This document shows, piece after piece, positions 1 to 55,708 of a DNA stretch of 64,000 nt. The DNA comes from Orenia marismortui DSM 5156 (GTDB taxonomy: Bacteria > Bacillota > Halanaerobiia > Halobacteroidales > Halobacteroidaceae), in assembly GCF_000379025.1 (NCBI RefSeq), contig NZ_KB900617.1, positions 858,820 through 922,819 of the forward strand. The letters run 5' to 3'. The notes beneath the pieces were generated by a model. It worked only from the letters and a program-made list of their open reading frames with translations. It was not told the origin of the DNA and made no database searches. Every line of letters starts with the position of its first letter. Positions within the stretch are counted from its first letter, which is position 1. The translations under genes and the position numbers were made by a program.

Positions 1-679
1 GCACCTCTCAGTTTACCATTACTTAGGTTATGGTGTTCTCTAGGTTATCCATACTTTACAGTTATGATTTCCTGTTTGTAATTCTACTAGAACCCACTAT
101 AGTACTAGTGTTTAAACCACTCAAAATTAAGATATCATTAGTAATCAAATCTTAAACTTCAATAACCTAGATATCCTTCGCTATAATCAACTTTCGTTGA
201 TTTTTTTCTCACTACTATGATATCTTCTGAACTCTAATATATCATCACTCTGGCTTTCCTGTTGGAGTTATACCATCACTTATCTCTATAGATTTCTATA
301 AAGAATTATATTAGAGATTCCCTCGGTCAATTACGTAAACCCTACAATCATTCCGACCCTAATCACACCTAGTTTTCTAACATGGGCACTTCCAGTTACA
401 CGTATTTACCAGCGCTACCTGTCTCTCCTTTGTACAGAGCCCCAAGCTAACATTGGACTTCCCCGTTTTTATGGCGGGTCGCCAAAGCTAAATGCCACCT
501 CTGGTTCACATATTGTTCCGGACTGATTGCTCATCTCAAACTCTTCAGATTCTACCTCACGGTAGACACCCTACTACTGTTGATTTCACACACCGTACTG
601 GCGAAAACAGCATGGATAGGATTTTCACCTACTGTTTACTAAATCTACGAGGCACACATAAAAAAGAAGTAGACAGAAT

Positions 680-2077
680 CTACTTCTCTCTTATTAATAA
701 ATCTGCTATTTCATTATCCCCCATCAAATCTTCAATATTTTCTAATCCTAACTCTTGGAGAGTCTTTAGAACATTCATATTGTCAAAAGGAGTCATAATT
801 AAAGAATCTTCACCTGATTCATTGATTATCATAGTAGCTTTCTCTTTGTCAATATTTGTTCTTGGCCCTCCAACACAGCCACCATCACATCCCATTCCTT
901 CTACAAAGTTAGCATCTATATATTCTTCTGAATTTAATTTGTCTAATATATCTTTACAGTCTTTAACTCCATCAACCTTTTTAGCTTTAAGTTTTATTAA
1001 CCGTCTTGGAGCTATTCTGTTAACAACAGTTTTTACGGAAAAACTCACTCCCCCTGTCCTACCATAGATTCTTCCAGCAAAAGATGCTTGATCCTTTTCA
1101 TCAGCAGGTAGATCCTTTATATCAATCTCTAAAGCTTTAAATATCTCATCTAATTCACTATAAGTTAATACAAAATCAATTGCCTCTTTTAACTCCGGCT
1201 CTTTAGCTTCAGATTTTTTAGCTATACAAGGTCCTATAAATACTACTTTAGCTTCAGGATATAATTTTTTTAACATTCTGCCTGATAAAACCATTGGTGA
1301 AACTGAGGGAGACAGATGTTCAAATACTTCTGGATATTTACTTTCAACAAGTCTAATCCAAACTGGACAGCAACAACTTGTTAAAAAGAAATCTTTTTCA
1401 CTTGTCACCAATTCATCAAATTCAAAGGCTTCTTTGATTGTTAACATATCTGCAAATAAAGCTACTTCTACCATATCTTTAAATCCCATATATTTTAATG
1501 CAGTTCTTATCTGCCCTAAAGAGATATGATCACCAAATTGACCTACTATTGATGGTGCCACTGCAGCATATATGGGGGTTTTTTCATCTTTTAAATAATT
1601 AATTATCGGCATAAATTCTATCTTATCTGCTATTGCTCCAAAGGAACAACTACTAACACAGGTTCCACAGTTTAAACATTTATCATTTACTATTAGTGGC
1701 CCTTCTCTCCTCTTATACATTTGTGCTTCATATTTACAAGCTTCATAACATTCCCTATTTTCAATCTCCTTACCACAGGATTCACATCTGCCCTCTATCT
1801 TAGTTACTATTGGCTTATCCACATGAGAAATTTCTTTAATCTTCTTTAATTCATCAGAAAATGGCCTATTTCTACTCGGATCAAGTCCCATCACCACTCG
1901 AATATGATCTTTGATAAATGAATCCTCTTCATCTGAATATCCATACTTTTCTTTAATGTATTCTACTAATTGATCTAAATCTTCACTCTTTAATAGCTTA
2001 TTATTCCATTCTCTCTTAACTACTTCTCTAAAAATCTCCATCCGTTTGCTTTGAAATTCTGTGAATTGCTCCTCCAT
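680..2077 (-). CDS. [FeFe]-hydrogenase family protein (465 aa). It has two N-terminal ferredoxin-like [4Fe-4S] motifs followed by an H-cluster domain.
   Basis: The H-cluster signature motifs are present: 'TSCCP' (L1), 'FIGPCIAKKSE' (L2, an MPCxxK variant) and 'EGMGCDGGCVGGP' (L3, an ExMACxxGCxxG variant). The ferredoxin-type motif 'CLNCGTCVSSC' is also present. Confidence 0.75.
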   Translation of the reverse strand: MEEQFTEFQSKRMEIFREVVKREWNNKLLKSEDLDQLVEYIKEKYGYSDEEDSFIKDHIRVVMGLDPSRNRPFSDELKKIKEISHVDKPIVTKIEGRCESCGKEIENRECYEACKYEAQMYKRREGPLIVNDKCLNCGTCVSSCSFGAIADKIEFMPIINYLKDEKTPIYAAVAPSIVGQFGDHISLGQIRTALKYMGFKDMVEVALFADMLTIKEAFEFDELVTSEKDFFLTSCCCPVWIRLVESKYPEVFEHLSPSVSPMVLSGRMLKKLYPEAKVVFIGPCIAKKSEAKEPELKEAIDFVLTYSELDEIFKALEIDIKDLPADEKDQASFAGRIYGRTGGVSFSVKTVVNRIAPRRLIKLKAKKVDGVKDCKDILDKLNSEEYIDANFVEGMGCDGGCVGGPRTNIDKEKATMIINESGEDSLIMTPFDNMNVLKTLQELGLENIEDLMGDNEIADLLIREK

Positions 2078-16641: not shown

Positions 16642-16817
16642 TAGAAAATATATTCTCTGATTTGCATTAGCTTATGCCTATAAAAATCAATTAGTGAAAG
16701 AAGTTAAGAGGACTGATGATTTAAAACTCTAGCTAATATACAATTCTATTATCTTAATAAATAAGAATATTAACTAATATCCCATAAAATCATTAATTAA
16801 ATTTATACTCAAAAAAT

Positions 16818-16858
16818 AAAGACTGCTGATATGAACGTTCATATCAGCAGTCTTTATT
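16818..16858. terminator. Bidirectional terminator. It is a perfect 38-bp palindrome 'aaagactgctgatatgaacgttcatatcagcagtcttt' flanked by A and T runs.
   Basis: Direct reading of the sequence. It lies downstream of the 1628-aa ATPase gene. Confidence 0.75.
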
Positions 16859-16886
16859 TTTCTTATTTAATTTTCACTACTAATCC

Positions 16887-19800
16887 TTACTTCATGCTAT
16901 TTCCTATTAACTTAAGACTTTCTCCTATCTGATTTAATTCTTGAATTACTTGTATTACATTTTGACCATCTTTTTCTGATTTTTTCTTAAGATATATCTC
17001 TTTTATCTCTTGCCATCTCTGCTGTTGTTCTTCTGTCATTCTATTACTGATCTCATAGAATTTCAACAAACTTGCTTCTGCTTCAGTTGCCAAAGTCTGA
17101 GCATCATTAATATAACTATTCTCTACTAATCCCTTGATTTCATTGTCATTCATAATTGGAACTACTTTTTCTACTATTTTGTTAATATTTCTATAAGAAC
17201 CTTGTAATTTAAATGGTGGTTCTGTTCTGTATTCATCACTTTGAGATGAGGAATAAATATACTCCATATTTACCTTCAAAATTTCATCTCTTATCTTCAG
17301 ACAGCTTTCTAATACACTTAAAGCCTCTTCTATTTCTTCCTCAGTATAGCTTCCATTTAAATCAATATCTCCCCTATCTCCAGTATCAATAGCTTGAATC
17401 AATTTATAAATATCTCCAGAATCTTTCATATAGATATTATTTAAGTAAGTATTTGAAGTAACAGCATTCTCTATATAACTGAGCTTAAAGGCCTCTTCAT
17501 TCTCCCTTAACATATCACCTAAGTTATAAACATCAGCTCTATTTGCTAACATATCAGGAATCTTAAACTTATCACCACTTTCAGTATAAGGATTTCCTGC
17601 CATTACCACAGCAACCTTCTTACCTCTAAACTCATAGGTCTTACTAACCCCATTATAAACACCTTCAATCTTTCTCTGCCCATCACACAAAGAGATAAAC
17701 TTCTGCAAAAATTCTGGGTTTGAATGCTGGATATCATCTAAATAAATCATTACATTATTTCCAAGTTCAAAGGCTAAATTTAATTTTTTCAACTCTTCTC
17801 TCGCCCCTGCATTTTTAGCTTCTGCTGGATCAAGAGAAGTAACACCATGACCAATTGTTGGACAGTTCACCTTGACTAACATCATACTCAATCTATTAGC
17901 AACATACTCCATTAGGGTAGTTTTACCATAACCTGGTGGAGATATCATTAGTAACATCCCCATGTTATCAGTTCTCTTATTCTTTCCTGCTGTACCTATC
18001 TGTTTTGCTAAATTATCACCGATTAAAGGTAGATAAACTTGGTCTATTAACTTACTTCTTACAAAGGAGGTTAAGACCTTAGGTTGTAAATCATTAAAAT
18101 TAATTTTATTTTTTATCTCTTCAATCTTAGCAAATTTTAATTGCTGGAATTTTTGATATTGTGGTATAATCTTATTTTTGAAATTATCTAACTTATGAAG
18201 AAAATCTATCAGATTAATTTGATATTTACCATTATCAATCACCTTATGAGTACCTACTAACTTATCTATAATCATTTCTGATTTTTTATTAATTGCTCGT
18301 CGATTGGAATAGTCACCTAAGATTAAACTCACTAAGACTTCATAGATATAGTCATTAAACTCTAACTCTTCTTCATATAAGTAAGATTGAACCCATTCAT
18401 TCACTAAAATATATCTTCCTTCTAAGTCATCACTTAAATTCTCTAAGGATTTTTTGAAGTCTTTTTTTCCTCCCTTTGAGATTAAAAAGTTATCAAAATT
18501 CTCATATATCTCTGCTGCTTCTACACTCAATACAAAAGTTTCATTCTGACTTATCTCTTTTGCTAAATATTCAGCAATTTTTTGATTATCATCAGTCTCT
18601 ATCCAGGGATTTTCATCTACAAAAGATTCTACCTCTTTAGCTAGACTTGGAATAAATCCTTCTATTAAGCCACGTTTAGAATATTTTGAGATCATATTTA
18701 CAGTCTTTAATCTATTTTGAAGCTTCTCTTTTCTTTCTTGAATTAAGCCAAATTGCCAAAATAAATTGGCTACAGCTCTAACTTTTGGGTTATAAGAAGC
18801 TAATTCTAACTCCCAATATATATTAACTAGAGTAGATAATATTTTATACGCATCATGATCATGAACACCTTTAGTATAATACTCATTAGAATGCTCTTGT
18901 ATATACTCTTTTATAATCCTATTTAAAGTCTGTTCATCTTTTTGATACAACTCTTCTAAAGAATTATTCTCTTGATAATTTTTAAAGATATTATATGCTA
19001 AAAACTCTCCTCGATATACTTCTTCATTTTCAGAGATAACTTTCTGGTCCCAAACCTCTTGATAATTGCTAAATTCTTCTGCATCTACCTGCTCCCAAAA
19101 GTCGGTACCAGAAATATGAAAATAGAATCCATCCTCTTTTTTAAGTAGACTAAGCTCAGGCTTTTGATTGTTTACAAGGAAATGATTATTCCCAAACTTA
19201 ATAGTATTCTCATCTAAGAATAGTTCCTTTTTATCCTTTAATTGCTTAATACTCGACTCTTTTAAAGACTTTAACTTATTTTCAATATCATCGGCTTTAG
19301 TACTATCACCAAGCTCTATCAACTGTTCTATAATATCTCTTATCTTATCTACCATAGGGCTAGTTGATAATAGTTCATTAATAGAACTTACTTCTTCAAA
19401 AGATTTTACCCTGTTTTTCAAACTTTTAAAGATTCTATCGGCAGCATTACTCAAAGAATCTATCTTTTTATTCTTCTTTTCAATTAATTGTTGCTTTTTG
19501 GACTCAAAGGTTGAGATTACTTCATCCCTTTTTTCAGTTAACATTACTAAAAATTCATCAAAATCAGAAAATTTACTTTCTAACTCATCAATCTGAACTA
19601 TTATTTTGGACATATAATCTTCGGTTTTTTCTACATTAGTAGATAAATCTAAATAGTTGGATACAGAATGAGTCAACAAATTCAGCTTGGAATAAAACTC
19701 CGCCTCTTTTTCTCTAGCATTCAAATTATCTATCTTATTCTTTAATTTAGATTTACTTTGATTCAAATTGGAAAAAAGCACAGAAATCTTATCGATTATC

Positions 19801-21773
19801 TCAGAAGTCTTAGTTGCATCTTCAATCTTTAAAGTATTTACTATATTAATTAGCATTTCTAATTCTTCTGATACTTTGACTATCTTTTGATTCAGTTCTT
19901 TTCCATCTACAAGCTTTTCAACTGTAGTTAAATTATTCTCTATGGACTTTACCTCTTCAATATAAGGATTTAAGCTTTCATCTTTGAGGAGAAAATTAGT
20001 ACAATCCAATGATAATTTATCATTCTTCTCTTTTATCTTTTTAGATAGATCTTCAACCTTCTTCTCATCAATAAATTGTAAATCCTTAAGTGCTGAGATC
20101 TCTCCTCTGACCTTTCTTATTTTAGTCAGATATTTTACAAAGTCATTGATATTTTCAAAGCTAGTATAGCCAATAGCTTTACTAATATCCTCGACCTTCT
20201 CTTTGACCTCATTATAGCTATTAGTTGTATTCTCTTTAATCTTAGTAACCTTATCAAACTCTTTAATCGCAATTGCCCCTGCTTCTTTAATTTTAAGCAG
20301 TGACTCTTTTATATTAAAGGCTTCCTTTTTGTCTAGCCAGAAATAATTATTGATAATATTTTCAGCATCTTTTACTATATCTACATATAAACCATAGTAG
20401 CTATCATCTTTTTGAGATAAGCTATAAAGCGAATAACAATCAGCCATCAATCTAACTATCTCTTTATTTCCGATATTATATAAGAATTCGTCCTTCTTCT
20501 CATCCTTTTCTTCTAATATATCTTTTACAAAGGAAGTCTGCCAAATTTGAATGGTATGATTTCTTTTAGGCTCTTGTCCTGCTTTAAAGATAATCAATTC
20601 TCCATTATCAAAATGTGAATATCCATTACAAATTATTGGCGTTTCAATATCTTGATGAATTATATTATAATTATGAATATAGTACTCTCCTGTTACTATA
20701 TCATAGAAGATATATTGATAGTCTTCACCATTTATAGAAGCTTTTTTATTTTGAAAGACTACATTCTGATAATCTACTTGAAATTTTTTAAAACCTCCTG
20801 CTTGTAAAAAGATACCATCAGGAAAGATTATTCCATGGTCTTCTGGCAATAAAACTACTGATTTTGCTATAGAATCTATCCGCTGTACTTCCTTCGTCTT
20901 CTCATTAAAGACAATATATCTATAATTCTCTTCTTGGTAGGGTTTTATCTTAAGTAAAATAAGATTTCCTACTATAGAATAGAAGATATCAGCATCATCA
21001 AGCTTTTGATCTTTTTGCTCTACTTCTTCTGCATAAATACCTTCTCCAGAATTTGTATTATCCTCTATCTTTAAGGTTAACGTCCCACCAATAGTTTCTA
21101 CAAATATACGATCTTCAATGGAAATATGGGGATGAAGACCAGCAACCTGGTCTTCTCTTGTAGTTATTTTCCATTCTATTTCTTGTTGGGTAGGATATAA
21201 AATCTCATGACTAAACCTATTACCCAAATACTCTATACTTTTATCTTCTTTGATTACCCATTTAAAACTCTTGATATCATCTACCTTATCTCCATTTTGA
21301 AAGACCATATAAATAAAATTATCTTTCTCATGAAATTTCGTAAAAAAACTATCTTTATAATATTTATACAACTCTTTAAAATCACTTTTAAATTGCTTAT
21401 CATTTAATAAAGAATAATCTTCACGAACAAATCTATCGCCATTATAAGTATATATAGAAAATACATCACTCAATTTACTTTCTGACTTTAATCCTAAGTG
21501 AACATTATATCCCAAAATAACTTTATTTCCTACTGGGACTATATCTCTAGGGATACAACTATTTTCTGTAACTATAGCTTCACTCTTCTTTAAGGTGTTT
21601 TTTATTTCGCCATATATCTCTATTCTCTTTTGATCTAATTTCTCTAATTTTTCTTTTAACTCTTTAGTTCTTTCAGTTAATCTATTTCTAATAACATTGT
21701 AAGAAGCAAAATTCTCCTGTTTTTTTTCTTGCTTAACTTCTTCCCCCATATCTATATCTATCCCCTTACCCAA
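16887..21773 (-). CDS. Giant (1628 aa) coiled-coil protein with a C-terminal AAA+ ATPase domain of AAA_5/MoxR-like type. The N-terminal roughly 500 aa is a beta-rich domain of unknown family.
   Basis: Walker A 'SPPGYGKTT'; Walker B-like 'VMIYLDDIQ'; sensor motif 'VVMAGNPY'. A heptad-like coiled-coil region of more than 600 aa precedes the ATPase. The start codon overlaps the flotillin stop by 8 bp. Confidence 0.7.
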   Translation of the reverse strand: MGKGIDIDMGEEVKQEKKQENFASYNVIRNRLTERTKELKEKLEKLDQKRIEIYGEIKNTLKKSEAIVTENSCIPRDIVPVGNKVILGYNVHLGLKSESKLSDVFSIYTYNGDRFVREDYSLLNDKQFKSDFKELYKYYKDSFFTKFHEKDNFIYMVFQNGDKVDDIKSFKWVIKEDKSIEYLGNRFSHEILYPTQQEIEWKITTREDQVAGLHPHISIEDRIFVETIGGTLTLKIEDNTNSGEGIYAEEVEQKDQKLDDADIFYSIVGNLILLKIKPYQEENYRYIVFNEKTKEVQRIDSIAKSVVLLPEDHGIIFPDGIFLQAGGFKKFQVDYQNVVFQNKKASINGEDYQYIFYDIVTGEYYIHNYNIIHQDIETPIICNGYSHFDNGELIIFKAGQEPKRNHTIQIWQTSFVKDILEEKDEKKDEFLYNIGNKEIVRLMADCYSLYSLSQKDDSYYGLYVDIVKDAENIINNYFWLDKKEAFNIKESLLKIKEAGAIAIKEFDKVTKIKENTTNSYNEVKEKVEDISKAIGYTSFENINDFVKYLTKIRKVRGEISALKDLQFIDEKKVEDLSKKIKEKNDKLSLDCTNFLLKDESLNPYIEEVKSIENNLTTVEKLVDGKELNQKIVKVSEELEMLINIVNTLKIEDATKTSEIIDKISVLFSNLNQSKSKLKNKIDNLNAREKEAEFYSKLNLLTHSVSNYLDLSTNVEKTEDYMSKIIVQIDELESKFSDFDEFLVMLTEKRDEVISTFESKKQQLIEKKNKKIDSLSNAADRIFKSLKNRVKSFEEVSSINELLSTSPMVDKIRDIIEQLIELGDSTKADDIENKLKSLKESSIKQLKDKKELFLDENTIKFGNNHFLVNNQKPELSLLKKEDGFYFHISGTDFWEQVDAEEFSNYQEVWDQKVISENEEVYRGEFLAYNIFKNYQENNSLEELYQKDEQTLNRIIKEYIQEHSNEYYTKGVHDHDAYKILSTLVNIYWELELASYNPKVRAVANLFWQFGLIQERKEKLQNRLKTVNMISKYSKRGLIEGFIPSLAKEVESFVDENPWIETDDNQKIAEYLAKEISQNETFVLSVEAAEIYENFDNFLISKGGKKDFKKSLENLSDDLEGRYILVNEWVQSYLYEEELEFNDYIYEVLVSLILGDYSNRRAINKKSEMIIDKLVGTHKVIDNGKYQINLIDFLHKLDNFKNKIIPQYQKFQQLKFAKIEEIKNKINFNDLQPKVLTSFVRSKLIDQVYLPLIGDNLAKQIGTAGKNKRTDNMGMLLMISPPGYGKTTLMEYVANRLSMMLVKVNCPTIGHGVTSLDPAEAKNAGAREELKKLNLAFELGNNVMIYLDDIQHSNPEFLQKFISLCDGQRKIEGVYNGVSKTYEFRGKKVAVVMAGNPYTESGDKFKIPDMLANRADVYNLGDMLRENEEAFKLSYIENAVTSNTYLNNIYMKDSGDIYKLIQAIDTGDRGDIDLNGSYTEEEIEEALSVLESCLKIRDEILKVNMEYIYSSSQSDEYRTEPPFKLQGSYRNINKIVEKVVPIMNDNEIKGLVENSYINDAQTLATEAEASLLKFYEISNRMTEEQQQRWQEIKEIYLKKKSEKDGQNVIQVIQELNQIGESLKLIGNSMK

Positions 21774-23805
21774 TTATTGATTTTATTGGATCATTTTCTA
21801 CTCCAAGTTCTTTAGCTTTATCTAAGATCTTAGTTATAGCTGTGCTTGGAGTGCCATTAGAATCATCCATATATTTCATTATAGCACTAGAAATTGTAAG
21901 GTTCTTTATTGCTTCAGTATCAACATTAAAACTATTGATTAAAGTTTTTAACTGCTTTTGAAAATTATCTATATCTCCATTAAAAAATGTATCCTTTACA
22001 TCGGTTAAGACATTAGAATTATTAACCAATCTATCAACTTGCTTTCCAGCACTAATTGAATTTATTAGCTTATCAAAGAAGATTGAGTCTCCACCAACGA
22101 TATCAACATTAGCATTCTTCAATCCGTCTTTCATTATTTCTGCTTGTGCCCTTGCTATCTCTGCTTTAATACCTATCTCTGCTAGTTCTACTTCCTTATC
22201 CTTATTTAGTTTTAATTTAAACTCTTCATGCTCTTTTCCTACAGAATCCAACTTTTTCATTGCTTCTGCTTTTCTGTTAATTCCTTCAGCTTCTGCTAAT
22301 GCCTTTTCTCTAGTTACTTGTGCTTCTGATTCACCTTTAACTTTAATTGCTTTAGCTTCTGCTGCTGCTTGCATCTCTTCAACTTTAGCTTTTGAAGCAC
22401 CTTCTGCTTCAAAGGCCTCTGCCTGTGCTTTCATTACTCTAGAATCAGAGATTCCTTGTACTGAAGCTTCCTCTGCCTTAGCATCTGCCATAATCTTAAT
22501 AGACTCAGCCTTCTTATGGGAGGTCTTTAGTTCAGTATCTGCCATTATAACCTCTTTTTCAGCTAATTCTTGAGCACTTTGTTTTTCTGCCTCAGCAAGT
22601 TTGATCTTGTCAATTGCCTTAACTTCTGCATCACTTTCAGCCTTTGTAACATTTACCTGCTTATCTCTATTAGCCTGAGCTATCTCTATAGTATCCTTTA
22701 TCTTCTCTTCTTCCTCTGCTACTGATTTCTCAACCATTACTCTTTCTCTAACTACTTCTTGCATACTCTTCTTCTCTTTTTCTAAATCCTTTTCCTTAGC
22801 TATTTTGGCAAGAGAAACTACTTTCTCTCGTTCTGTTCTTTCTATTTCTGTCTCTTTTTGTGCTCTTTCTTGTTGTACAGATTCTGTTCCTTCTTTGGAT
22901 ACTCTAGCAATAATTATCTGTCTATCTTTATTCTCTTCAGCAATTGAAATCTCTTCATCAGTCTTGATTCTTGTTCTTTCTGCTTTTAATCGCTCTTCCT
23001 CTTCTACAATTTTTATTTGAGAATTTTCTCTAGATTTCATATTAGCTATTTCTCTCTTTTGCTTCTCTTCTGCTTCAGTCTGCTGTCTTTCCAATTCTAA
23101 AACAGCCTCTCTGGCACTTACATCTTGTTTAACAATTGTCTTCTCTTTATTTCTTTTAATTTCATTTGATTTCATTGCCTGAGTTGCAGTTAATTCAATA
23201 ATCTTTTTAATACCTTCTGAGTCAAGTACATTATTCTCATCTAAATTCTCTACCTTTGTCTGTTCTAAATAATCAATGGCAGCATCATCTAATACATAAC
23301 CATTAAGATCAGTTCCTATCACTTGAAGAATCTCTTCTTTAAAAGTATCTCTTTCAGTATAAAGTTGCGTAAATTCAAATTTCTTTCCAACTGTTTTTAA
23401 AGCTTCTGAAAATTTAGCATCAAAAAATTCCATTAAAGTAGCAGTATCAGATGCTTTTTTAGTTCCTAAAGATTTAGCAACTCTTAGTACATCCTTCTCT
23501 GTATGATTTACCCTTACAAAGAAAGCTACCTTGATATCGGCTCGTAAATTATCTTTACATATCAGTCCAGCTTTGCCACTTCTCTCGATCTCTACCTTTT
23601 TAATAGATACATCCATCTTCTCCCAATGGTGCAATATCGGAATAATCCAGGTTCCAGTAAAGGAGACCTTTGACCCTCCAATTCCATTCTTTACAATAGC
23701 AGTTCCTTGATCTACTTTCTTATAAAATAGTGTTAATAATATAGGAAAGGCTATAAAAATTAAAAAGGCCACTCCTCCAACAACATATAATATCATTTTT
23801 AACAT
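21766..23805 (-). CDS. floT: Flotillin-like SPFH/band-7 protein (FloT/YqiK family, 679 aa).
   Basis: N-terminal TM helix; SPFH domain '...RADIKVAFFVRVNHTEKDVLRVAKSLG...'; long Glu/Ala/Lys-rich flotillin coiled coil. Confidence 0.8.
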   Translation of the reverse strand: MLKMILYVVGGVAFLIFIAFPILLTLFYKKVDQGTAIVKNGIGGSKVSFTGTWIIPILHHWEKMDVSIKKVEIERSGKAGLICKDNLRADIKVAFFVRVNHTEKDVLRVAKSLGTKKASDTATLMEFFDAKFSEALKTVGKKFEFTQLYTERDTFKEEILQVIGTDLNGYVLDDAAIDYLEQTKVENLDENNVLDSEGIKKIIELTATQAMKSNEIKRNKEKTIVKQDVSAREAVLELERQQTEAEEKQKREIANMKSRENSQIKIVEEEERLKAERTRIKTDEEISIAEENKDRQIIIARVSKEGTESVQQERAQKETEIERTEREKVVSLAKIAKEKDLEKEKKSMQEVVRERVMVEKSVAEEEEKIKDTIEIAQANRDKQVNVTKAESDAEVKAIDKIKLAEAEKQSAQELAEKEVIMADTELKTSHKKAESIKIMADAKAEEASVQGISDSRVMKAQAEAFEAEGASKAKVEEMQAAAEAKAIKVKGESEAQVTREKALAEAEGINRKAEAMKKLDSVGKEHEEFKLKLNKDKEVELAEIGIKAEIARAQAEIMKDGLKNANVDIVGGDSIFFDKLINSISAGKQVDRLVNNSNVLTDVKDTFFNGDIDNFQKQLKTLINSFNVDTEAIKNLTISSAIMKYMDDSNGTPSTAITKILDKAKELGVENDPIKSIIG

Positions 23806-24057
23806 TAAACATTCCTCCTTGACACTATATAATTTTTATGTAAAAAAAGCTTATCTCATCTTAATATAAAAGATCTTTAGAGACATAGCTTATATAAACT
23901 TTATAAATAAATTCACTTACTTCCCACCAGCTCAAAAAACTCCTTAGCTATTAATAATCTAAAAAATTATAATACCGCCACAGACTAGACCCCAATGTCA
24001 TAAAGCTATACTGCAATAAAAAAGAACTTAATGTTAATTATCTTAAATTTATGAAAA

Positions 24058-24215
24058 GTTCCTCTCTCTTAAGAATAAGAGAGAGGTTAGGAGATTTCTT
24101 TTATCACGGAGTGGTCGTTAGACCCGTAGAGAGAGTTGTGAGTTTTTAAAACCTCGAACTCTCCCCTTAATCCCCTCTCTTCATCCCAAGCGAGGGGAAA
24201 AACATAACCCCTTTC
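24058..24215. repeat. MITE-like palindromic element, copy A. Its roughly 85-bp core is shared in reverse orientation with 55538-55619.
   Basis: Palindrome 'cctctctcttaagaataagagagagg' followed by 'ttaggagatttcttttatcacggagtggtcgttagacccgtagagagagttgtgag' and a second hairpin 'cccctc...gagggg'. Confidence 0.7.
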
Positions 24216-24322
24216 AAAACATTTGTGAATTAATGGTATTGTAAATTGATGACATTGGGCTGAATCCTGTGGCTAATAAATTACTCATAAATAGTTGAAC
24301 ATTTAACTATTTCATCTTTCTA

Positions 24323-24988
24323 TTAAATATTTAACTTCTCTTTTACAATATATAGTTCTTTCCCTTGAACTTTTGATACTACAATTATTTGACTACCCTT
24401 CAAAATGTTTTCTCCTAAAGACTTTACATTAATTACAATAGGATATCCATTAACTATAATTTCAGCCTGAGCAATATTTCCAGAATTCAAACTGGACTTC
24501 AAAACACAGCTCTGACCAATAATCTTAATATCACTTCTGTCTTCCATAGAGGCAAAAAATCCTTTCAATGGCTCTGTAAGTCCTTTAGTTATAAAAATTG
24601 ATATTATAAAATTCTGTACAAATATTAAAATCCCCAAAAAGGAGTTTGGAGAAATATTCGTATAATAAACTAACATGGTCAAAGACCATAGTACAAGAAA
24701 TAAAATAGTACCGTAAAACATAATAGGCACAGCACCAATATTTAAAAATTTTAATATCTTTACAGAATAATATTTTACTGTTCCCAGCTCTGATTTTATT
24801 TCTTCAGGATCAATTCCACCATCAAAGTACATATTAGATGAAAAGTCCACCTCTAAGTCTAATTCAAAATCTATAGTATCAAAGGAGAATATGCCCAATA
24901 TTATTAAGAGCCAGTAGGTTATTACCATAATTAAAAAAATAGAAGGTAGTATATTGATTCCAGTAAAAGCAAATTGAATATATTCCAT
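24323..24988 (-). CDS. NfeD-like (YuaF/YqiJ-type) membrane protein and flotillin partner (221 aa).
   Basis: N-terminal TM helices plus a C-terminal Gly/Val-rich beta-barrel-like domain, located upstream of the flotillin gene. Confidence 0.5.
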   Translation of the reverse strand: MEYIQFAFTGINILPSIFLIMVITYWLLIILGIFSFDTIDFELDLEVDFSSNMYFDGGIDPEEIKSELGTVKYYSVKILKFLNIGAVPIMFYGTILFLVLWSLTMLVYYTNISPNSFLGILIFVQNFIISIFITKGLTEPLKGFFASMEDRSDIKIIGQSCVLKSSLNSGNIAQAEIIVNGYPIVINVKSLGENILKGSQIIVVSKVQGKELYIVKEKLNI

Positions 24989-25173: not shown

Positions 25174-25980
25174 TCATAAATTGCCCTTATATTCGTATTG
25201 ATTTATTCGATTTGCCATCTTCTGTAAGTCAGCAATACTTAAATCAAACTCCTTCTTGGCCTGACTTGAAGATGTTTTAACTCTTCCTAATTTTATTTTC
25301 ATATTATCTATATCTGTCATTGCTTTTTCATTAATAGATAGATATCTATCTATAGAATCTAGTTCGCCTAAAATCATCCCTTTTCTCTTTTGCAAAGATA
25401 TAAGCTCTTCTCTCATCTCAGTCGTTAAATCTGCTTTGTTTTCCAACATATCGATCCTAAAGTTTATGTAACCTAGATTAACATCTTCTATTGATTGATA
25501 AATATTCTTTATCTTTTCTAAATTATCTAAAATATTATAATAAACTTCTTCGGTTACGCTCATAAATCTTTCATAAGTTATCTCTTCTTTATCTAGCTTA
25601 ATATCTAGGATATTTTTAAACTTTTCAAATTTATCAATTAACCTGAGTAATTGATTTAAAGCCAGCCTAGCACTTTCTTTATAATATTTAGAACTTGTTA
25701 AATCACTAAATTGTAATTTTAACTCTTCAATGAACTCTATAATTCCTTTATTGTATGAAATTGAAGCTTCTGATAGCTTTATATCTTCCAAATCCTTTAA
25801 TGGAGATTTTTCAGTTTTAGCTTTGAACTTTGTTCTATCTAATCTCAAGTTTAAAACTTCGACTAATAACGCTCCTACTATAATTCCAAGTCCAAATTTT
25901 TGAAGCGAGTCTGAAAAGAAAATAACTTCTATAGCTATTACAAAAGGGATCAATTTCTTTATGATTTTTTTCTTATCCAC
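25174..25980 (-). CDS. Membrane-anchored coiled-coil protein, possibly an XpaC-like partner of TelA (268 aa).
   Basis: Two N-terminal TM helices then a coiled coil. It lies 11 bp downstream of the telA-like gene. The family assignment is tentative. Confidence 0.35.
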   Translation of the reverse strand: MDKKKIIKKLIPFVIAIEVIFFSDSLQKFGLGIIVGALLVEVLNLRLDRTKFKAKTEKSPLKDLEDIKLSEASISYNKGIIEFIEELKLQFSDLTSSKYYKESARLALNQLLRLIDKFEKFKNILDIKLDKEEITYERFMSVTEEVYYNILDNLEKIKNIYQSIEDVNLGYINFRIDMLENKADLTTEMREELISLQKRKGMILGELDSIDRYLSINEKAMTDIDNMKIKLGRVKTSSSQAKKEFDLSIADLQKMANRINQYEYKGNL

Positions 25981-25991
25981 CTTTATACTCC

Positions 25992-27167
25992 TTAATTATT
26001 AACTTTCTTATTATCGATCTTATCTTCATCGAGCAGATTTATATTTTTAGCCTTAGCAAAACCTTTAATTTTTTCTTCCCCTGCTGTAATAAGTTCGTTA
26101 AACTCTTCTATTGACTCTTTCATCTTTGGTAGAGATTTAAGCCTAAAACTTGTTATTTCATCCATTGCATCATTTATGTCTTTAAAAGCCTCTTTTAATT
26201 TATCGGCTTCCAACATAGATGAAGAAGCTTGCTTTTGAATTTCAATTCCCTGTTCTTTTAATTTTTCAGCAGTCCCAGCTATTAAATTATTGGTAGCAGC
26301 ATTTAAAGCGTTTATCTTATCTAATACAAGTTTCTGATCTGCAAGAGCTTGAGAAACTATTATCGCTATTTCTAAAGCATTTACTGTGACCATCTTTGCT
26401 CTATCTATTCCCCTAATTAATTCCTTATTATTCTTCTTTATAATTTCTATCGCAAATATCCCTTGTTGGTTTATAGACTGTTGTTGCTGTAAGTCCATTA
26501 CCCTTTGTCTTAGAGGGAATTGTATCTCTTCCATTAAAAATTTCCTTTTATCTTCATCTCTTATAGATTCTATTTCTACTGATAACCTTTTATCAATATA
26601 ATTACCCATTTCTATATATTTACTTAATCTCTTAGTCAAATTATACATATCTTCTTGGTCATAAGTTAAAGTAATATTATCTCTTTTTAATATCCCTTTA
26701 GATTTCTCCAAACTTTCTATAATCTTATTAATTATTTCTTCTGAACTCTTATATTTATCAAAGTATTTATTCACTGGATTGAAAATTTTAAATATTCCCT
26801 TGCTTCTTTTTGTAAAATCAATATCACTTGGATCTAAATCTTCTACAGTAGACTTTAGTTCTAATAAAGAATTAGCTACTCTTTCTCCATCTGAACTTTT
26901 TGCAGAAATACTCTGAACAGATGTCTTTAACTTGGCACTATTTAATGAACTTTCTTTCTGCACATCTATTCCAAGCTTATCAATATTGCTAATCGCTATA
27001 TCTCTTTCTTCTACTTCTTTATCATTTAGCATTAATAAGCTTTCAATAAAGTCTTCAGATTGCTTTTCAAGTTCAGTTAATTCCTCTTTAGGAACACTAT
27101 TTTCTTCCTCAATCTTCTCTTTTAGCTCTCTATCCTCTGGTAAAATCAAAGAAAAATCATTACTCAT
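25992..27167 (-). CDS. TelA-like (toxic anion resistance, YaaN family) protein (391 aa).
   Basis: Size, charged coiled-coil character and TelA-like N-terminal region '...IDKLGIDVQKESSLNSAKL...'. Confidence 0.6.
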   Translation of the reverse strand: MSNDFSLILPEDRELKEKIEEENSVPKEELTELEKQSEDFIESLLMLNDKEVEERDIAISNIDKLGIDVQKESSLNSAKLKTSVQSISAKSSDGERVANSLLELKSTVEDLDPSDIDFTKRSKGIFKIFNPVNKYFDKYKSSEEIINKIIESLEKSKGILKRDNITLTYDQEDMYNLTKRLSKYIEMGNYIDKRLSVEIESIRDEDKRKFLMEEIQFPLRQRVMDLQQQQSINQQGIFAIEIIKKNNKELIRGIDRAKMVTVNALEIAIIVSQALADQKLVLDKINALNAATNNLIAGTAEKLKEQGIEIQKQASSSMLEADKLKEAFKDINDAMDEITSFRLKSLPKMKESIEEFNELITAGEEKIKGFAKAKNINLLDEDKIDNKKVNN

Positions 27168-55500: not shown

Positions 55501-55708
55501 TAGTGTACAGTTGACAGTTTACAGCTAAGTTCAAAAGCTCACAACTCTCTCTACGGGTCTAACGACCACTCCGTGATAAAAGAAATCTCCTAACCTCTCT
55601 CTTTATCTAAAGAGAGAGGAATTTTTAAAGTCCTCTCTTAAGAATAAGAGGGGATTTAGGGGAGTTGTGATGTCTTGACTTTTAATTTTAACTGTCAACT
55701 GTACACTA
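55501..55708. mobile_element. MITE-like element, copy B, bounded by 21-bp terminal inverted repeats ('tagtgtacagttgacagttta' and 'ttaactgtcaactgtacacta'). It carries the conserved core and palindromes shared with 24058-24215.
   Basis: Terminal inverted repeats match 20 of 21 positions. The internal core 55538-55619 is the reverse complement of 24061-24142. Confidence 0.7.

Follow-up and report, generated by a model that had tools for sequence, protein, structure and literature searches.

A flotillin-like/NfeD-like gene pair and its co-inherited giant AAA+ ATPase in Orenia marismortui: a candidate module for ATP-driven scaffold remodeling at the bacterial membrane

Within a stretch of 64,000 nucleotides (nt) from Orenia marismortui DSM 5156 (contig NZ_KB900617.1, positions 858,820 to 922,819; hereafter the window), three minus-strand genes, which are clearly co-oriented and tightly packed, encode a small NfeD-like membrane protein of 221 amino acids (aa), a flotillin-like SPFH protein of 679 aa and a giant ATPase of the AAA+ type (Table 1). 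Our comparative analysis indicates that the ATPase is inherited together with the other two proteins as their dedicated partner, and the locus as a whole is best explained, with a probability of roughly 0.55, as a module that remodels flotillin scaffolds and, where the genes are linked, PspA scaffolds. The locus very probably represents the abbreviated form of an operon class that has been described by Ravi, Anantharaman and colleagues (Ravi et al., mSystems 2024, preprint 2020; PMC11237479). The preliminary description of this DNA, made from the sequence alone, had regarded the system as undescribed, a claim that has to be withdrawn, since the operon including its abbreviated form appears in that paper.

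The partnership of the three genes is carried by the gene neighborhoods of their homologues. A sample anchored on the ATPase comprised 80 loci from many phyla, with one genome per species; among these loci plus the window, 63 had at least 2.5 kb of upstream sequence and 60 had at least 4 kb. An orthologue of the 679-aa SPFH protein (45-56% identity) was encoded upstream on the same strand in 60 of the 63 loci, and an NfeD-like gene preceded the SPFH gene in 55 of the 60. When 80 metagenome loci were collected with the SPFH protein as anchor, the ATPase gene followed downstream in 58 of the 59 loci with at least 1.5 kb of downstream sequence, and an NfeD-like gene was located upstream in 60 of 63. 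Since this linkage is tight in both directions, and was found in at least eight phyla, it supports the earlier suggestion that the ATPase is a dedicated partner of the flotillin-like/NfeD-like pair, and the adjacency is not sporadic. Linked loci were present in Clostridia, Bacteroidota, Planctomycetota, Verrucomicrobiota, Desulfobacterota, Kiritimatiellota, Omnitrophota and Fibrobacterota, the triad was further found in Pseudomonadota, Actinomycetota and Deinococcota, and annotated records of the Pseudomonas fluorescens plasmid pQBR103 and of Streptomyces display the same arrangement. The SPFH orthologues that adjoin the ATPase share 45-57% identity across phyla, and the conservation of the ATPase and the flotillin-like protein together (40-57%) is unusually high.

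The N-terminal part of the ATPase belongs to the Pfam family DUF3686 (PF12458), which was matched over its full model (1-448 of 448) at E 2e-167 (557.7 bits; cut-off 25), and a second family, DUF7902, was matched at E 1e-21. The isolated AAA+ fragment scored above cut-off with both Pfam AAA (30.8 bits) and AAA_5 (24.8 bits, cut-off 22). The three motifs that were originally noted, SPPGYGKTT, IYLDDIQ and VVMAGNPY, are all present. In a numbering that begins at the ATG start codon discussed below, GYGKTT (within SPPGYGKTT) lies at residue 1273, IYLDDIQ at 1335, VVMAGNPY at 1381 and a further motif, NRAD, at 1403; an alignment of 45 sequences shows no variation in the GYGKTT Walker A motif, the Asp-Asp Walker B pair, NRAD and the sensor-1 region with NPY. 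The acidic pair of the Walker B motif (D1338-D1339 in IYLDDIQH; window positions ~17733-17738) thus consists of Asp-Asp, not of the usual Asp-Glu, in 45 of 45 family members. Hydropathy analysis revealed no transmembrane (TM) segment in the ATPase, Pfam scans detected no nuclease, helicase, DNA-binding or protease domain, and neither residues ~840-1270 nor the C-terminal 220 residues gave a match when scanned. A sequence search of the PDB produced matches at the level of the P-loop only. The family is large, with more than 1884 homologous protein clusters at 90% identity, and ranges from Clostridia to Planctomycetes, Bacteroidota, Streptomyces, Pseudomonas plasmids and Vibrio. In addition, an invariant Y.KG.HD.D motif (YTKGVHDHDA in the window, ~18852-18878) was observed at residues ~958-966, where no Pfam domain was found; it belongs to the helical domain that separates the small beta domain from the AAA+ core.

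The predicted structure adds to this picture. The AlphaFold2 model of residues 1-512 (predicted local distance difference test, pLDDT, 87; predicted template modeling score, pTM, 0.85) starts with a helix, which is followed by about seven four-stranded groups (52-404) and, towards the C-terminal end, by further helices. A Foldseek search of the PDB with this model returned 115 matches at E <= 1e-3, and all 50 of the 50 matches listed contain a beta-propeller (best E 1e-6), with TM-scores that were low (0.10-0.37). Because of these low scores the modeled region is classified here as a divergent beta-propeller. The fold of the N-terminal ~500 aa, which had been described as beta-rich, can no longer be called unknown, as the region corresponds to DUF3686 and is modeled as a divergent propeller flanked by helices. 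The remainder of the protein (residues 513-1620) was modeled with a pLDDT of 83 and a pTM of 0.59. A coiled-coil stalk exceeding 600 aa had been proposed; the model instead displays long helices over ~330 aa (513-842), and between these and the AAA+ core it places a small beta domain and then a helical one.

Structural matches to the AAA+ core were weak and of the general kind expected for any AAA+ protein that has a beta-hairpin ahead of its sensor-1 strand, including dynein heavy chains (E 1e-6), ClpC1/Skd3, ClpA, NorQ/CbbQ and RuvB. The best target-normalized TM-scores (0.44-0.55) were obtained with MoxR-type proteins (NorQ, CbbQ, RavA), the AAA_5 match of the fragment lies above cut-off, and the stretch 'NP...(I/L)P..L..R' after sensor 1 is one that we take to resemble a MoxR motif. 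However, the ATPase is five to six times larger than MoxR-type proteins, its Walker B motif contains DD rather than DE, and RuvB, Clp and dynein score similarly; no gene for a vWA partner was found among the conserved neighbors. The assignment of the C-terminal region to AAA+ ATPases stands by its Pfam matches. Its AAA_5/MoxR-like character is no more than plausible: AAA_5 reaches 24.8 bits but the generic AAA family 30.8 bits, and the E values of NorQ/CbbQ are similar to those of RuvB and Clp.

The SPFH domain of the 679-aa protein became apparent only in an N-terminal fragment. Scans of the full-length protein and of eight orthologues against Pfam yielded no match, probably due to compositional bias, with the region rich in E, K and A presumably tripping the HMMER bias filter, whereas the first 200 aa matched Band_7 (PF01145) at E 1.1e-10 and 42.3 bits (threshold 23.6). 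Such fragment-only detection constitutes an annotation pitfall and can hide this flotillin subfamily from automated pipelines. The protein carries a single hydrophobic anchor at its N-terminus (aa 1-32), a long helical region rich in E, K, A and R (54% of aa 201-560), and a conserved C-terminal region; no Flot domain was found by Pfam in its C-terminal pieces, and PDB searches with the protein and with its profile returned no match. The FloT equivalog (NCBIfam NF058507) was matched weakly (E 0.0016). Since the score of 17.6 bits compares with a cut-off of 700, the protein is, as judged from its sequence, flotillin-like and not a FloT orthologue. Its subfamily is distinct and better conserved than that of FloT, and nearly always has the ATPase downstream.

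For the 221-aa protein, a Pfam match of its own to NfeD or YqiJ_N was not found. It aligns, however, with orthologues that match these families: 8 of 16 match YqiJ_N (best 3.6e-8) and 3 of 16 match NfeD (PF01957, the OB-fold domain through which NfeD proteins bind partners), the latter weakly (best E 0.005). Hydrophobic segments at residues 4-41, 81-109 and 114-138 correspond to about three TM segments. A profile search of the PDB gave only chance matches to G-protein-coupled receptors and no structure of YuaF or YqiJ. With respect to the NfeD plus flotillin pair that was initially recognized, the SPFH member is hence confirmed through Band_7, while the NfeD-like member is identified only through its orthologues. 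NfeD2-SPFH2 operons are known from Bacillus subtilis (yuaF-floT) and Escherichia coli (yqiJ-yqiK) (Hinderhofer et al., 2009; PMC2636767). The pair in the window shares with them the order of a small NfeD-like membrane protein followed by a flotillin-like SPFH protein that is anchored at its N-terminus and contains a long helical stretch, but differs in that the SPFH protein is not a FloT orthologue and in that no ATPase gene features in the description by Hinderhofer et al. (2009).

At 517 nt, the spacer between the NfeD-like and SPFH genes of the window is unusually long: related loci usually have less than 60 nt in this place, and O. metallireducens has 111 nt. It contains a 97-nt stretch (24054-24150) with 94% identity to a copy that lies in inverted orientation at a distance of 31 kb (55530-55626), and a hairpin (CCTCTCTCTT...AAGAGAGAGG at 24086..24061) overlaps this repeat, which looks like a small dispersed element, similar to miniature inverted-repeat transposable elements or repetitive extragenic palindromic sequences, inserted in the operon. 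An Rfam match was not found in the spacer.

A correction is required at the junction between the SPFH and ATPase genes (...attgggTAAggggatagatatagatATGggggaa...). The preliminary description relied on a mechanically defined open reading frame (ORF) of 1628 codons (16887-21773) that overlaps the flotillin stop codon by 8 bp, and derived from it translational coupling and a fixed stoichiometry. At position 21773 this ORF begins with a TTG codon, and the sequence there reads TTGGGTAAGGGG instead of ATGGGGAAG as had been stated. An ATG (ATGGGGGAAGAAG) is located at 21749, 17 nt past the TAA of the flotillin-like gene, with AAGGGGA ahead of it; the O. marismortui protein at NCBI, which is 100% identical and 1620 aa long, begins at this ATG, and the N-termini of homologues align to it. 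Since the overlap depends on the TTG, and both the NCBI protein and the homologue N-termini fit a start past the flotillin stop codon, the overlap is most likely an artefact of ORF extension. Furthermore, the gap between the two genes has a median of ~120 nt in related loci, and an overlap occurs in only 4 of 69. Because the probable start lies beyond the stop codon and overlaps are rare, neither translational coupling nor a fixed stoichiometry is supported.

In about 20 loci (e.g. L023, L053, L040, L044, L034, L049, L039) the SPFH and ATPase genes are separated by 0.5-2.7 kb. The cargo of these gaps, assigned by eye from translations, consists of genes resembling REP-associated Y1 transposases, DUF559-like endonucleases and toxin-antitoxin systems, together with small lipoproteins. 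The possibility that the gap genes constitute a fourth conserved component was rejected, as the insertions are unrelated; the junction rather appears to tolerate or attract insertions.

Linkage to PspA is a recurrent feature of related loci. Genes for a CesT/Tir protein (CesT_Tir_1, E 3e-58) and for PspA/IM30 (PF04012, E 6e-41) lie directly ahead of the triad in ~20 Bacteroidota loci among the 80 ATPase-anchored ones and in 31 of the 80 metagenome loci, with a divergent helix-turn-helix (HTH) regulator opposite these CesT/Tir-PspA-bearing triads. This corresponds to the operon class defined by Ravi et al. (2024), which comprises CesT/Tir-PspA, YqiJ-YuaF, Band-7-flotillin and a beta-propeller-coiled-coil-AAA+ protein, was placed by comparative genomics in the phage-shock (PspA) membrane-stress network, and is exemplified by Dokdonia donghaensis (ANH61663.1); the gene string of our Bacteroidota loci equals the published Dokdonia string, including the divergent cHTH regulator. 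The window shares with this class the ATPase built of a propeller, long helices (513-842) and an AAA+ domain (~1266-1412), the Band_7-flotillin protein (E 1e-10 for the N-terminal fragment) with its anchor and E/K/A/R-rich helix, whose C-terminal part is only weakly of FloT type, and the 3-TM protein of YqiJ/YuaF type, recognized via orthologues. It differs in having neither the CesT/Tir-PspA dyad nor the cHTH regulator and thus corresponds to the abbreviated operons which, according to one sentence in Ravi et al. (2024), are widespread without the dyad. Neither linkage statistics nor a structural model nor experiments form part of that paper. PspA has also been noted together with band 7/FloT and NfeD by Popp et al. 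(2022). On plasmid pQBR103 of P. fluorescens SBW25 (L081, 85.5-97.6 kb), the triad follows a PspA-polyamine module of genes for PspA, a rhomboid protein, DUF2491, DUF350, DUF1190 and glutathionylspermidine synthase; this arrangement unites two PspA operon classes that were kept separate in Ravi et al. (2024).

How such a module might work can be outlined from the properties of its members. SPFH proteins, such as HflK/C and flotillin, form large membrane-attached oligomeric cages, and NfeD-type partners bind them. The three genes could constitute a self-contained module on the cytoplasmic side of the membrane, in which the YqiJ/YuaF-type 3-TM protein and the flotillin-like protein would form a membrane-anchored oligomeric scaffold, and the 1620-aa soluble ATPase, with its propeller, long helices and AAA+ ring, would act as the dedicated ATP-driven partner of this scaffold. 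The ATPase would oligomerize through its AAA+ domain and contact the scaffold through the propeller and the helical arms, and ATP would be used for the assembly, remodeling or disassembly of the flotillin lattice and, where the genes are linked, of PspA polymers, in an envelope or membrane-stress response and in the manner of Vps4 acting on ESCRT-III or NSF acting on SNAREs. The interaction, the oligomeric state, the substrate and the direction of remodeling are all points that we infer. Since the ATPase is soluble, is co-inherited with one flotillin subfamily and carries a ring-forming AAA+ domain on propeller-bearing arms, an ATP-driven remodeling factor is the most economical model; taken by itself, this mechanism falls somewhat short of even odds. 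A more specific version, in which the ATPase forms a ring that attaches to a closed cage of flotillin and YqiJ on the inner side of the membrane and, during membrane damage, opens, disassembles or loads the cage, together with PspA where linked, is still more tentative. A role in membrane repair or remodeling, which had been among the initial suggestions, fits the recurrent linkage to PspA.

Several observations weigh against the module as a flotillin/PspA-scaffold remodeler. No PspA gene was found in the 64-kb window, and the CesT/Tir-PspA dyad has no counterpart there. In three of the 63 ATPase loci (L022, L036, L064), for which 7-10 kb on the upstream side were available, neither an SPFH nor an NfeD-like gene lies close by, so that stand-alone copies of the giant ATPase exist. 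The Asp-Asp form of the Walker B motif may indicate slow or regulatory ATP turnover, the E values of the AAA+ fold matches span 1e-6 to 1e-2 and do not single out a sub-clade, and a literature search retrieved no experimental work on any member of the module.

Among machines that act on membrane polymers, Vps4 and ESCRT-III, like the bacterial associations of PspA with AAA+ proteins, offer a parallel in the genomic coupling between an AAA+ ATPase and a membrane-remodeling polymer, and the related loci encode PspA, an ESCRT-III homologue. In contrast to Vps4, the ATPase described here has no MIT domain, its N-terminal architecture is different, its pre-sensor-1 hairpin is unlike the classical AAA clade, and the window does not encode PspA. 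The functional coupling of an SPFH scaffold to an AAA+ machine at the membrane is also established for HflK/C and FtsH, a likeness in the way of working, which could suggest a role in membrane-protein quality control. In this case, a flotillin/NfeD-like cage would corral damaged or unfolded membrane proteins, and the ATPase would extract or unfold them as a non-proteolytic analogue of HflK/C-FtsH. Such a function would agree with the occurrence of the unfoldases ClpC1, Skd3 and ClpA among the fold matches and with the modeled pre-sensor-1 beta-hairpin, and a staphylococcal flotillin is reported to stabilize unfolded proteins (PMC11222466). However, FtsH is membrane-embedded, carries a metalloprotease domain and has no propeller or long helical arm, and HflK/C faces the periplasm, whereas the ATPase of the window is soluble and without a protease domain, and is thus not a member of the HflK/C-FtsH type. 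Moreover, a protease domain or gene was found neither in the ATPase nor among its conserved neighbors, and the linkage is to PspA and not to proteases. We therefore consider a role in quality control unlikely.

An anti-phage or abortive-infection function, in which the ATPase would sense infection and the flotillin/NfeD-like pair would disrupt the membrane, had also been raised in the preliminary description. Defense systems commonly contain large NTPases of several domains together with membrane partners, and the selfish elements between the genes in a minority of loci could be seen in the same light. However, none of the six locus proteins matched PADLOC-DB 2.0 models at E <= 0.01, no homologue of the ATPase was found in 50,697 phage records, and homologues occurred in only 13 of 72,556 plasmid records, mostly of megaplasmids or chromids. 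In addition, an identity of 40-57% across phyla is unlike that of fast-evolving defense genes, and the conserved neighbors are PspA and CesT/Tir rather than defense genes. These results speak against the suggestion and render a defense function very improbable.

The label 'DNA repair ATPase' in NCBI-named records, or 'ATPase involved in DNA repair' (NCBI, Pfam), is not backed by a characterized role, so that the ATPase does not strictly belong to a well-characterized family with an unrelated function. That the giant protein is truly a DNA repair ATPase and its adjacency to the flotillin gene incidental is hardly credible, as the weak similarity to RuvB, which along with the name speaks for it, covers only ~45 residues around the P-loop with 17-21 bits against cut-offs near 280-300, nuclease, helicase and DNA-binding domains were not found, the reciprocal linkage is to membrane proteins with no repair gene among the conserved neighbors, and a paper supporting the label was not found in the literature; the name probably goes back to an unspecific similarity to ATPases or coiled coils. 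Likewise, literature searches found no paper that connects DUF3686, PF12458 or 'DNA repair ATPase' with flotillin.

Table 1. Features of the three-gene locus, given as positions in the window or as residues of the ATPase counted from the ATG.
Feature	Window position	ATPase residues	Strand	Basis
YqiJ/YuaF-type NfeD-like membrane protein, 221 aa, ~3 TM and C-terminal beta-rich domain	24323..24988		-	ORF, hydropathy, orthologue Pfam matches
NfeD-like/flotillin-like intergenic spacer, 517 nt	23806..24322		-	repeat copy and hairpin inside
Flotillin-like SPFH scaffold protein (putative), 679 aa	21766..23805		-	Band_7 on N-terminal 200 aa
SPFH domain of the 679-aa protein (aa ~31-170)	23296..23715		-	Band_7 match on N-terminal fragment
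Giant soluble ATPase, 1620 aa from ATG at 21749	16887..21749		-	DUF3686 family; NCBI label 'DNA repair ATPase'
DUF3686 region: N-terminal helix, ~seven four-stranded beta blades (propeller-like), then helices	20340..21662		-	
Long helices, ~330 residues including DUF7902		513-842		AlphaFold2, all-helical
DUF7902 (PF25472), inside the long-helix region (residues ~513-842)	19731..19976		-	Pfam, E 1e-21
Small beta domain		~844-887		AlphaFold2
Helical domain		~913-1127		AlphaFold2
AAA+ core with beta-hairpin before sensor-1 strand, then lid and further helices		~1266-1412		AlphaFold2
AAA+ core: Walker A, Walker B, pre-sensor-1 beta-hairpin, sensor-1 region, NRAD	17583..17954		-	Pfam on fragment
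Strong bidirectional terminator-like hairpin	16814..16859		.	hairpin search

A perfect palindrome with a 20-bp stem and T-runs on both sides lies 28 nt past the stop codon of the ATPase gene and before the next gene, and is likely a bidirectional terminator that closes the operon. Upstream on the same strand, the TelA-like and DUF2339-like genes that had been recognized previously were confirmed by Pfam (TelA, PF05816, E 5e-66; DUF2339, E 7e-76), while the XpaC-like assignment of a third, 268-aa protein could not be upheld, since no match to XpaC or any other Pfam or NCBIfam family was found. The gene for this protein, which has hydrophobic N-terminal segments (aa 5-47), follows 11 nt after the TelA gene (window region 25174-27167), and the pair resembles yaaN-xpaC of B. 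subtilis. Because TelA, the 268-aa protein, DUF2339 and the downstream permease were found in 0 of 160 related loci, including that of O. metallireducens, the combination with the triad into a 15-kb membrane-centered block, as proposed earlier, appears to be a local coincidence or at most species-specific.

The mechanistic role of bacterial flotillins is still debated, and the system considered here has been described computationally but is, so far as the literature shows, experimentally uncharacterized. The system itself is not a new discovery; what our analysis adds to one published paragraph are linkage statistics, structural models and a corrected start site. A flotillin subfamily that almost never occurs without an AAA+ partner of ~1600 residues provides an experimental handle, since a single point mutant of the ATPase could be used to address its function. 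If the version with an ATPase ring on a flotillin/YqiJ cage is true, the ATPase would be the first example of a motor dedicated to a bacterial flotillin scaffold and would represent a new class of SPFH-coupled AAA+ machines, and 'DNA repair ATPase' would be a wrong name across thousands of genomes.

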